From Saccostrea echinata (Eukaryota): a DNA stretch of 64,000 nt. The stretch lies in contig NW_026889750.1 in the NCBI RefSeq assembly GCF_033153115.1, positions 43,958,001-44,022,000 on the forward strand, in the 5' to 3' direction. Below, one piece after another: positions 8,301-61,487 of the stretch. Below the pieces are notes generated by a model that had not been told where the DNA came from, searched no databases, and saw nothing but the letters and a program-made list of their open reading frames with translations. The number at the start of each line of letters is the position of its first letter. Within the stretch, counting starts at the first letter, position 1. A program made the position numbers and the translations under genes.

Positions 8301-11300
8301 GGTTAAAGTTTTTGGAGCAGGTCCATTTTCAAGAAACTATAAGTCATATTTGGACCAAACTTGCATGGATGATGTATCTAGGGATGGACAATACCAGACT
8401 TGCTTCCGATGCTGGATCTGACCTACATTTTTCGGATGAGTGAACAGGTTAAATTTTTTGGAGCAGGTCCATTCCCAAGTAACTGTAAACCCAACCTGGA
8501 TTGACTTAATTTGTATGGATGATGCATCTATATGGATGGACACTACCTTACTTGCTTCAGATGCTGGATCTGGCCTACATTTTTTGATGGGTGAACAGAT
8601 TAATGATTTTTGAGCAGGTAAATTCCCAAGTAACTGTAAGTCCTACTTAAACCAAACTTGCATAGATATTGATCTCAGGATGCAAACTAACTAGAAAAAA
8701 ATTGGTGTGAGATTTGCCTTACTTAAAGATTACGTGCGTCGAGGTGAGCATCGTTATCTTTGACTACCTATGTTTTTCTCAGGATGTCTCCTGGCTAGAA
8801 GTCTTCTCCAAACTATAGTTTTATCTTTTATCTTTTTTTTTTCTTTTTGTAATGTGGCTAGCGAGGTCCAATAATCTGGTCAGATTCATACACAAATTTT
8901 CAAGTGCTCACTTTAATTTTCAGGAGAATGTTCCCATATCTCTATATTTCTGTTACCGGCCTGAAGTCGGACGGAATATATGATATTTTGCTGGACGTCC
9001 TGCCGGCGGACAAACGAAGGTTTAAGTTTTTTAATGACGCCTGGGTCCCAGTGGGTGTGGCCGAACCTCAGCAGGAAAATTCCTCCTATGTACACCCCGA
9101 CTCCCCCAGTCTAGGGTCGCTGTGGATGACGAGAAAAATTTCGTTCGCCAGAGTGAAACTGACCAACAGCTTAGAGTCTTCTCCAGAGAATGTAAGTAGA
9201 CAGTGACTTGGAGTAGGTAGACTGGAATGGTGTAAGTATATAATGGCTTGGATTCTGCCGAGAATGTAATTAGACAATTAATTGGTGAATAACAGAGAAT
9301 GTTAAAAGCCATTGGATTGGTTACCCCGGAGAATGTACTTAGACAATGAATGGCTTGGATAATTAGACAATGGCTTGGTAATTCCAGAGAATGTAGGTAG
9401 ACATGCTATGGCCAGTGCGTCTTCTCACAAAAAAGTTAAGGTTAAAATAGGACAACTCTGTTATTCCTTAGGTCAACAAATACGTAATTTTTTTTACAGG
9501 ATTATTAACATTATATTCTAATTAAATAGAAATATGAGTTTTGTGACCAACTATAGATTAGATATTTATTGGAGGCTCTGAAAATTTTGTCTTAGTCGTA
9601 AGATATTTTGTGAAAAGGTCCACTGGTTTCTTCAGAAGTAGCTCCCTCTTTCGTGAATGTTAATAAGTATTGCTGAACTTAAAAAGCATTTGATTGGTAA
9701 TGTAATTAAGTATCATTTCTTTATGTTGTGATACATGTAGCATAAATACCTGAAAGCTAGGCGCGAAATCGATAATCAAAGTACTGAAATGTCATAAAGT
9801 GTGGAATAAAATATTACTTTTATATATCAAATACTACTAGTATAAGTGTAGGTATGAACCTTCCTCTAAGATATATTTGCAGGAAATCGTCGGTACTGAT
9901 TAGAATGCACTCAGAGAAATGGGAGTGATAACAGCGAGCACTTAACACTTTTACATAAAAGATAAACCTGACCATGGCGTCAGGTCTGAAACAACGTGCA
10001 ATTATACAACATGACAATTAGGATAAAAATAAGGCGTAAAATGGCCACAGATGATGAAAATGCGCGCAGCAATTGTAAGGCTGCATAAAAGAGGCGTATC
10101 CTAATTTATATGGAAAATATTTGACATCACGAAAAATAACATTAAAGGTGTAAAAAGGACAGTTGATTTTTTTAGGTATCTACATGAACCTAAAAATTAA
10201 TAATTCGTCCTCAACTGGCAAGGAAATAATCTTTCCTTGACTAGTGCTCCTTGACTGATGCTACCCCCCCCCCCCCTTGAAAATTAAATAAAATCGGAAT
10301 CGGATATAATATTGGGAACAACCCAGCCACGAATATTCTACACTTTTTTTGGCCAGCAAGTTTTTAATCTAAGCTGTATGTTGCACAATAGAATTCAAAT
10401 TTAAACAGGAATTGAGTAAAACAGTTATATTTCATTTATGCTAAGATAATGATTGATTGATTGTATGTTGTTTAACGTCCCATTCGAGAATTTTTCACTC
10501 AGATAGAGACGTCACCGTATGGCGTTGAAGGGCTTCAAGTTTAGATCTATACTCGGCACTCCGGGCCATTGAGCAGTAAGAGATCTTTATCGTGCCAACG
10601 CCTACCGTGACACGGGACCTCGGTTTATATGATCTCATCCGAAAAACCCGAGACTTTCACTTCTAGTACCGGGCGCTTGGCGAAGGAACAGTCACTACCT
10701 ATGTTTACGTCTTAGGTTTGACGCAGCGCGGCGAACGAGAATCGAAACCGGGCCTCCGGATCACGAAGCATGCGTCCTACCACTAGGGTATGGTAATTAA
10801 CTTTCATATTAAGTATAATTCAGTAATAACCATAGAGTTATAGTTGCAAACAATGTATTAGCTTATTAAAACATATATTGTTTGTTTATTTCTCTCAGAC
10901 CATACAATGGTATATGAGGTACATGAACATATTTACATATATACAAAATACAAAGTCAAGTAAGGAAGAGTAGTATGAAATGACAAAGTATTACTGAAAA
11001 ATGGCCAATATCTTTTTAACAAACAAAGACAGCTTTATCAGTGAGTCAACATTTGTGGTGGACATAAGATTCTCAAACTTATAAATATTTACATGAAAAC
11101 AATACTTCTTATCAATAAGTTTCATACGAAATGAGGAAAAGTATGGACACTCCATTACATAATGGAATTCATCACCTAAAGTATTTTTATTAATACATAA
11201 ATTACATATTCTTAAAGATCTATCAGTATTAGTCCATCTACCAGCTTCAATTGGAAGTTTGTGGTTATAAATTCTAAATTTGGTCAATATAATTCTTAAA

Positions 11301-59675: not shown

Positions 59676-61487
59676 GTAACTGGGGCAAGGGTACAGGTAG
59701 AAAACCATTTATACAAAATATACTCCAAGGTAGTCAAATAAAGCAAGGAGTAGACAACTCTTAACAATAAACTGCTACACCTCGATTTGAGTGATAGACA
59801 ATTAACTCATACATACACTTATCCTTTGTAAACAATAGTGATGGTAGGGGAAGACAACTAGCTAAAAAATACTATGCCTTGGAAAATGTGTAAGGCTTTA
59901 TGGATAAACAACCCTCCTATGAATTGATAGCACTGATATATACTGCATTGCCTAGACCATCGTGTTTGGGTTTTTTTAAAAGCTAAAATAGGACCAAACT
60001 ATGGAAGTATGGAACCATGATTTGTAACAAGTGTAAGTGATAGAATTCATTATTATACAGATGGAGTCTTACAGGAGTTACAATTCTTGGACTGGTCTTT
60101 AAAGTTCGTGTATACCATATGTGCAGTTACAAGGCATTTTAATTTAATTCTAATTAAATTTCATCAGGAAGGGAAAACAACAATTTCTGCATACAATTTG
60201 CAACCGAGAGTCTAGACTTAAAAACATTCCTGAAGCTTGTTTTATAATTAATGTCCATTTGTCAGTTGGTTATTTTTACACATTAAAATTAAAGTTGTAC
60301 AATGAGACAAGTGGCATAATGGTTCATCTGACATTCCCTTTTTTAATCTACACAGTATGCAGTTTGCTAGATCATGTAATGAAGTTTTTTTTTTGAGAGA
60401 CAAAAGACATTGTTATAGATGTAATAAAGTAAATCAAATGGCCAGAGTATGGATATGACAGGACACAGGTGTTTAATGAAGAAGACTATTTTATAATAGG
60501 AATTAGTAGACCACATCCAGTTTATCTTCATGATGTCATAGGTAGATTTGAATTAGGGCCAGTAGAAGATAGATTGACCTTTTATTTGACAGGGATTTCC
60601 TTGTCACAGTAAAGCATCAAGTGTTTTTCTTTTTTGAAGGGTTTTCTCTCAATCCCCATCCCACCCCAATACAAAAAAATCCTATCATATACAGCAGCTA
60701 AAATTTATTGAAAAATTAATTAAAATTCAAAGATTTATTTTCACAAACTTTTCATAAATATATGGTGTTTATCAGCAAACATTTTTTTGAATATATATTC
60801 CTTACATGATATCATTGTGTTTAGTATTAACAGAGATCATATAGATTTCATTTCTGTCAATGTATCATTGCCACCTGTTTTTTGAGAATACCGTATACCG
60901 GTATTTCACAGTCCTATATCATGAACTTTAGTATAAGTACATACTTTTACATTGTTTATTATGTTAATTGATGGCAGAGAGCTACTAGCACAGTAATGAC
61001 TTTAATTTTGTGGAAGATTGCACTTGATGGCCATTTCACTTGTTTCATAAAATGTCAGCTTTAACATTTAAGCTTAATGTCAGCTGCCCTTATTTACAAA
61101 CAATATGTCTGACTTTGCAATTTAAAGTAATAATGTTCTGATGACTACTGCATTTTTTTTTATGAATAATAAATTATTTGTACCTCACAATATTGACCAC
61201 AAAATTCCATGTATTAAGTTGATTTAATGAAATCTTTAAGAATTCCTATTCTTAGTCAAGCTGATACCCAAATGTATAATGATCACCATGGCCACTAGTA
61301 TGATATAACATGAATTTTATAATTTGTTCATTTGATATGATCCTTAGTAAAGGGATGGACATATATCTGTTTAGATAATTCTTTACTGATAGTTGACATA
61401 TTATCATGGAAACAACATTGTTCAAGGTTATAAACACCTGATTTTCTTCAGGTGCAAACTACACTTGAAAGCAAAGTATATATATTA

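Follow-up and report, generated by a model that had tools for sequence, protein, structure and literature searches.

The stretch of DNA analysed here, called the window, spans 64,000 nucleotides (nt) of the oyster Saccostrea echinata (NW_026889750.1; G000:C1:43958001-44022000) in an assembly of 923 Mb. It holds a T-box gene on the forward strand, FAM184A and a C2H2 zinc-finger gene on the reverse strand, and a forward-strand Sel1-repeat gene, which an earlier note on this DNA had called LRP2BP, the name kept below. Pfam finds the T-box, FAM184, C2H2 and Sel1 domains in these genes, and our hand-built models of all four have open frames, with 28 introns in total; the assembly showed no second copy of the window. 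At several of the introns a tandem repeat straddles the exon border and copies the junction itself. These arrays belong to an already named class, the mirages, and in other genes of this genome such repeats are in clear excess at exon borders.

Contigs that join exons across introns, assembled from four runs (at most three samples, two studies) and taken here as RNA, bear out the joints of FAM184A between 33628 and 26103, and the exons of the T-box gene starting with the one at 15826. The zinc-finger and LRP2BP borders, including the last LRP2BP exon, were drawn from open frames only. Assembled contigs of this kind drop rare splice forms.

Junction copies in the window

All 28 donors and all 28 acceptors were scored for a copy of their own junction within 250 nt, with 414 other introns serving as the null. 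Five donors copy themselves: T-box 9191 and 16028, and FAM184A 37573, 31406 and 30549. The first follows the T-box exon at 8924..9191 (+; open frame and Pfam model), whose donor at 9192 is copied downstream. The earlier note had read five copies of GAGAAT/GTA here, and the region 9180..9403 (+) indeed holds a decayed donor mirage with a unit of about 35-37 base pairs (bp), in which GAGAAT/GT occurs five times counting the real donor, with spacings of 74, 35, 34 and 58 and GTA in four of the five. Its junction probe tops all 414 null introns (p = 0.0024); Tandem Repeats Finder (TRF), run on the window, does not report it. The second case follows the T-box exon at 15826..16028 (+; model, Pfam and contig X5 record 14). 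It is a donor mirage at 16025..16588 (+) with a locus-specific 51-bp unit and partial units in about 10-11 copies, much as had been claimed; TRF places its start at -4, with about four exon bases in each unit, the junction probe gives p = 0.024, and nine donor-like GTs lie downstream of the real donor.

The note's decayed exon-tail copies at FAM184A donor 37573 are also there, donor included, at 37189..37485 (-), the best of them (37485-37454) being identical at 24 of 32 positions (p = 0.0024). Two further FAM184A donors had been missed: 31406, with a decayed copy at 31296..31316 (-; 17/21 identical), and 30549, with one at 30490..30512 (-; 20/23), both found by the junction probe, covered by contigs and reaching p = 0.0024. 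For LRP2BP donor 59675, a decayed copy had been placed near 59716. The junction probe does find a possible copy at 59715..59732 (+; 16/18 identical), but it is borderline (p = 0.029), its score does not exceed the null maximum, and it is compatible with chance over 28 tests. Two in-frame, stop-free donor-like sites lie 21 and 54 nt downstream of the same donor, at 59696 and 59729 (+), and are the best candidates in the window for genuine alternative donor use. No acceptor array was found in the window, as the note had observed, and only one acceptor of the 28 (33628, with a low score of 19) exceeds the null maximum.

The idea that repeat units copy the exon tail and its donor holds for these five donors and fails for three other arrays that had been grouped with them. 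The intronic minisatellite at 34689..36528 (-; TRF, 54 bp, 34 copies) begins 6 nt past FAM184A donor 36535, and that at 32311..32734 (-; TRF, 34 bp, 12 copies) begins 16 nt past donor 32751; both are as close to the donor as reported, and neither copies its own junction (p = 0.89 and 0.94). Within the 54-bp array, 32 donor-like sites score higher than the real donor does (10.0 vs 7.4 bits), and donor 32751 is consistent with the lengths in contig X1 record 3 (273 nt, exons of 122 and 151). The third array, in the 3' untranslated region of the zinc-finger gene at 43146..43380 (-; TRF rows 43166-43359, 58/70-bp units), exists near the stop as described, and what it copies is the last codons and the stop codon, with no splice site involved. 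An in-frame coding repeat of 33 bp in three copies (43481-43578, -) lies in the last exon of the same gene.

The 51-, 54- and 34-bp units match their own locus only, in a search of the assembly that skipped very common words, as expected by the note if the units were local; an origin of these three main arrays from a dispersed satellite or transposon was therefore rejected. Other window arrays do count as dispersed repeats, their unit occurring at many loci: those of 146-168 bp at 3-635, 8202-8639, 22062-22602, 48250-48817 and 61790-62705 are dispersed families and likely transposon-borne. The 147-bp family has very deep coverage in the spliced-run contigs.

Contigs bear on splicing at three of the copied donors (16028, 31406 and 30549), and at all three the exon-side, that is the first, donor is used. 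At 16028 this comes from one run (contig X5 record 14), in which the 165 nt between pieces fit exons 18649-18713 and 18798-18896, contigs not covering 16034-16700; at 31406 and 30549 the real donor is used in four of four runs. The proposal that the copies act as decoy or alternative donors, together with the junction check suggested for it, thus yielded no downstream donor use in these contigs, from which rare forms are dropped. Use of the T-box copies would lead to a stop after four codons in the 9191 array and nine in the 16028 array.

Some further observations concern the same two genes. A broken retrotransposon resembling a long interspersed nuclear element, with endonuclease and RVT_1 frames, lies at 10991-14371 (-) inside the T-box intron that begins at the 9191 array. 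The donor of T-box intron 4 (84 nt), at 18713-18714 (+), is of the GC-AG type, and the exon lengths agree with contig X5 record 14. At the FAM184A joint 28743-28750 (-), a six-letter stretch differs in run X2, either an allele or an assembly effect.

Border arrays in dynein, myosin and ABC genes

Three gene families, dynein heavy chains, myosins and ABC transporters, were picked irrespective of repeats from 2 Mb of this genome. Introns were annotated with our own spliced aligner and reference proteins, and kept if both flanks align well and two settings agree; the closest named homologs of these genes are oyster proteins. The resulting set has 1,107 introns in 52 genes: 641 of 857 introns in 15 dyneins (216 fell below the confidence filter), 223 in 23 myosins and 243 in 14 ABC models, one chimeric ABC model having been split. 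Three divergent dynein-like loci lacking annotation were dropped, as were myosin m13 (a second copy of m12, 14 introns), ABC region a8 (no introns), and L019, L020 and L154-L158; two paralogous ABCB donor arrays were removed for part of the counts. We counted as a border array any TRF array with a score of at least 50 and a period of 10-120 that crosses a border by at least three exon bases.

By this definition there are 33 donor-spanning and 18 acceptor-spanning arrays (p = 0.049; 31 to 18 without paralog repeats, p = 0.085), with donor and acceptor counts of 13 and 6 in dyneins, 9 and 9 in myosins, and 11 and 3 in ABC genes. The absence of acceptor-side arrays, true of the window, therefore does not extend to these genes, in which the acceptor arrays are as clear as those at donors. 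Units range from 13 to 93 bp, and the exon share of the unit (0.55 at donors, 0.42 at acceptors) is without clear bias. All 51 arrays fall in 19 of the 52 genes (p = 0.0002), and genes prone to border arrays are also richer in intronic arrays (rho 0.47, p = 0.002). Such clustering in prone genes accounts for the five cases found in one window. One dynein gene (L093-L098, L016; G000:C12:5279001-5349000) has nine border arrays in 42 introns, among them the largest acceptor array, 37.8 copies of 42 bp. Border arrays make up 16,171 of 635,834 intron bases (2.5%) vs 26% for dispersed repeats, which argues against a major part in the intron growth that the note had suggested.

An enrichment at borders, which the earlier note had proposed for donors, was confirmed in these genes. 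With dispersed repeats masked and each array collapsed to one unit, there are 85 local arrays with units of 30-120 bp, of which 40 cross a border; the expectation is 16.5 when genes are pooled and 15.7 when it is computed per gene (p = 2e-5). Dyneins (16/26) and myosins (17/36) are each significant in this range, and the ABC genes pass with units of 10-29 bp (7/27 vs 2.2-2.4 expected). A second detector, with centred and position-matched 40-nt probes and a copy sought 30-120 nt away, hits 36 of 864 donors (4.2%) and 21 of 857 acceptors (2.5%), vs 331 of 28,185 and 352 of 28,081 mid-intron positions (1.2%). The gene-bootstrap ratios over mid-intron are 3.5 (2.1-5.3) for donors and 1.95 (1.1-3.0) for acceptors, and donors exceed acceptors 1.7-fold (1.06-2.8). 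An earlier, looser control had given a smaller excess (tiles 1.3-1.7%, donors 3.1-3.2%, acceptors 1.75-2.1%) and was superseded because its probes were exon-heavy and events were counted per tile. Rates at borders are thus some 2 to 3.5 times those of the intron interior, and roughly 1 in 25 donors and 1 in 40 acceptors have a copy of themselves.

Survival and birth of the arrays

We regard the arrays as locus-specific minisatellites that straddle exon borders, at donors and acceptors alike, and that are probably kept since the exon-side copy is still spliced. On this account a stretch of 13-93 bp would be duplicated in tandem and units then gained or lost, presumably through slippage or unequal exchange; the arrays and their copy-number differences are observed. 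Duplications internal to an exon would be purged, and those that cross a border would spare the protein if the exon-side site is used, as the contigs indicate at three window donors and the protein alignments suggest elsewhere. Some genes are prone and accumulate many arrays. The excess at borders would then reflect mainly longer survival: a single unit is under selection, exon-adjacent DNA turns over less, and GC-richer DNA has somewhat more arrays. Parts of this have been measured, and together they may suffice; exon-tied copies likely last longer because splicing tolerates them.

The comparison of gene copies bears on this turnover. Several genes have second copies in the assembly (C132/C10, C81/C33, C36/C5), either haplotypes left uncollapsed or duplicates of recent origin, with introns that differ by 3-5% substitutions. 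Across 79 intron pairs in three genes, the share of bases absent from the other copy is 5-8% within 75 nt of the donor, 15-17% between 150 and 250 nt, and 46-49% farther out. Between C5 and C36, alleles or recent duplicates, the copy numbers of three myosin V arrays differ (11.3 vs 4.1, 10.9 vs 3.9 and 32.9 vs 6.5); four dynein arrays and one myosin array have the same number in both gene copies, and a 38-bp acceptor-spanning duplication (L055 / L153 region, C33 vs C81) occurs in only one of the two haplotype-like contigs. One ABCB donor (L168-L175, G000:C28:4170001-4270000) carries arrays in three paralogs, including paralogs that are 75% identical and whose other introns no longer align; the distant paralog's unit differs, which speaks for either long survival or repeated origin.

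The lean towards donors fits a selection at acceptors that is limited to short units. Below 38 bp there are 13 donor and two acceptor arrays, one of the latter without its AG; from 38 bp upward there are 18 and 16. In 810 array-free introns the frequency of AG is 0-0.2% at 3-12 nt before the acceptor, stays reduced to about 27 nt and is back at the background of about 5.5% around 28-33 nt; after donors GT has no such exclusion gap, and a scan for branch-point motifs gives a weak peak. An AG exclusion zone between branch point and acceptor is known, and is explained by scanning from the branch point to whichever AG comes first (Gooding et al. 2006, PMC1431707); the AG-free gap before acceptors is common to it and to the oyster introns, the paper describing a splicing rule and the oyster arrays being repeats for whose short-unit scarcity the rule is invoked. 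Short acceptor units would be rare because a copied AG would sit between the branch point and the true acceptor, and short donor duplications would be spared because the most upstream donor is chosen, as in the human F7 gene discussed below. Thus the earlier proposal that selection removes acceptor-side arrays fits the short units (13:2) and not those of at least 38 bp (18:16).

Several results weigh against this combination of survival and splicing filter. The short/long split (Fisher p = 0.03) uses a cut chosen after seeing the data, a rank test on the periods gives p = 0.14, and the AG-free zone ends near 28-33 nt, yet the acceptor shortage extends to 38 bp. In the ABC genes the excess of 30-120 bp units is weak (7/23 vs 4.5-4.7 expected, p = 0.14-0.17) and acceptors have no excess (4/200 vs 1.8%). 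The far-intron turnover figure contains transposon gains and losses, which the null masks, and the borders of the test genes come from the protein-collinear choice of the aligner, not from RNA. Moreover, the probe ratios hold at 3.2 for donors and 1.95 for acceptors when compared with positions within 500 nt of a border; among arrays whose edge units are at least 95% alike, 14 are at borders and 11 intronic, for an expected border share of 0.19 (p = 3e-5); and weighting by GC content raises the expectation merely from 11.5 to 14.6, vs 33 observed among 62 arrays. GC content as the whole cause was accordingly rejected.

These last three results also favour a different explanation, that tandem duplications of 30-100 bp are born or expanded more often at both exon edges, which would yield the same class of arrays under the same splicing filter. 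Since that filter only lowers border counts, some other factor must raise them, and the excess among near-identical arrays means that slower decay alone is insufficient unless homogenisation keeps old arrays alike. Of arrays with at least three copies, 23 of 37 span a border, and arrays that do not span one are slightly dense in the first and last 20 nt of the intron (4 and 4 vs 1.8 each). However, identity gives no date for homogenising arrays, so survival and birth bias are inseparable here, and among dyneins and myosins units of 10-29 bp have no excess (4 vs 4.8-4.9 expected). We therefore place longer survival first, as the probable cause of the excess, and a bias in birth second, as a possible one. 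It is tempting to speculate that exon edges could be hot spots where such duplications arise or expand, the branch-point-to-AG rule setting the minimum unit length at acceptors, though we hold this only tentatively. Nucleosome-linked replication or repair, polymerase pausing and recombination in exons are candidate causes of a bias at exon edges. If true, mirages would be traces left by a mutational process focused on exons, and across the genome they would provide a natural assay of how splice sites are chosen and how introns are gained by duplication. A separate study is said to have described introns created by tandem duplication.

The first process proposed in the earlier note, a co-transcriptional one that duplicates donor-proximal DNA only, is very unlikely. 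The window does have five copied donors and at most one acceptor, and the pooled donor excess, together with the 33:18 count before paralog removal, points the same way; but 18 arrays span acceptors, myosins are balanced, long units are nearly so, and the zinc-finger array copies a stop codon in like manner. In addition, taking the rate seen in the most prone gene, at least four copied donors among 28 introns have a probability of 0.58. Selection of the copies as decoy, backup or alternative splice sites also seems improbable. In its favour, 27 of 37 border arrays contain a copy equal in strength to the real site, one donor is arrayed in three ABCB paralogs, and fewer units are divisible by three at borders (11/49) than among intronic arrays (19/45, p = 0.048), a hint of low-level use; yet 11/49 is indistinguishable from one third (p = 0.13), the contigs contain first donors only, and many copies are decayed. 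Real sites that bear arrays show no clear difference in strength (p = 0.05 and 0.57). Function is unlikely because the T-box copies run into stops, copy numbers differ 3-5-fold between gene copies, with one duplication present or absent, and the arrays are a small share of intron DNA.

An artefact of annotation, repeat calling or assembly is the least probable explanation. Our aligner, at an initial setting that rewarded introns, did call false micro-exons inside arrays, an example of how mirages mislead gene prediction, and borders outside the window have no RNA basis. Nevertheless, stricter settings and the agreement of two parameter sets removed the false micro-exons, two independent detectors concur (with a probe chance rate of at most 0.03%), and the arrays recur in the second, haplotype-like contigs with copies that bear their own substitutions.

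Relation to known mirages

Mirages were reportedly described in amphioxus by Canestro and colleagues in 2002, according to papers that cite them. They are not curiosities of lancelets, as they affect a few percent of the splice sites in this oyster, above the neutral expectation. In later work, amphioxus mirages are reported in Adh3, the globins BflGb6 and BflGb9, troponin C and PGBD5, and are defined as tandem repeats that cross exon-intron boundaries at either end and contain cryptic splice signals, while splicing is normal and their length unstable (Ebner et al. 2010, PMC3087553; PMC3902484); Ebner et al. call their origin unclear (PMC3087553). The oyster arrays share most of these traits. 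The unit spans the boundary at five window donors and in 51 arrays of the test genes, and fails to do so in the 54-bp, 34-bp and zinc-finger arrays; intronic copies keep the splice dinucleotides, as with the nine GTs after 16028; and both 5' and 3' boundaries are affected, the acceptors only outside the window. Copy number likewise varies, in the three myosin V arrays. As to splicing, the contigs, which drop rare forms, use the exon-side site at three copied donors. In contrast to the cephalochordate cases, the arrays described here are from a mollusc, their number was compared with a null expectation in 1,107 introns, and the border excess and the shortage of short acceptor units go unreported in the amphioxus passages (PMC3087553, PMC3902484).

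In humans, the 37-bp variable number tandem repeat in intron 7 of F7 has a first unit that spans the border and offers 5-9 identical donors; in minigenes the most upstream donor alone is used, the others being functional but silent (Borensztajn et al. 2006, PMC1557585). That is one locus and the donor side only, whereas oyster arrays occur at both sides and in many genes. Human segmental duplications also contain variable internal tandem repeats at exon-intron boundaries (De Grassi and Ciccarelli 2009, PMC2812944). These share with the oyster arrays the potential to supply cryptic splice sites and differ by altering gene structure, no new intron or alternative form having been seen in the oyster. 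A genome-wide measurement of the border excess, or mirages in oysters, was not found in the literature searched, mostly without subscription papers and without supplements. What the oyster arrays add to these known systems is modest: a measured excess at exon borders and a length filter on the acceptor side.

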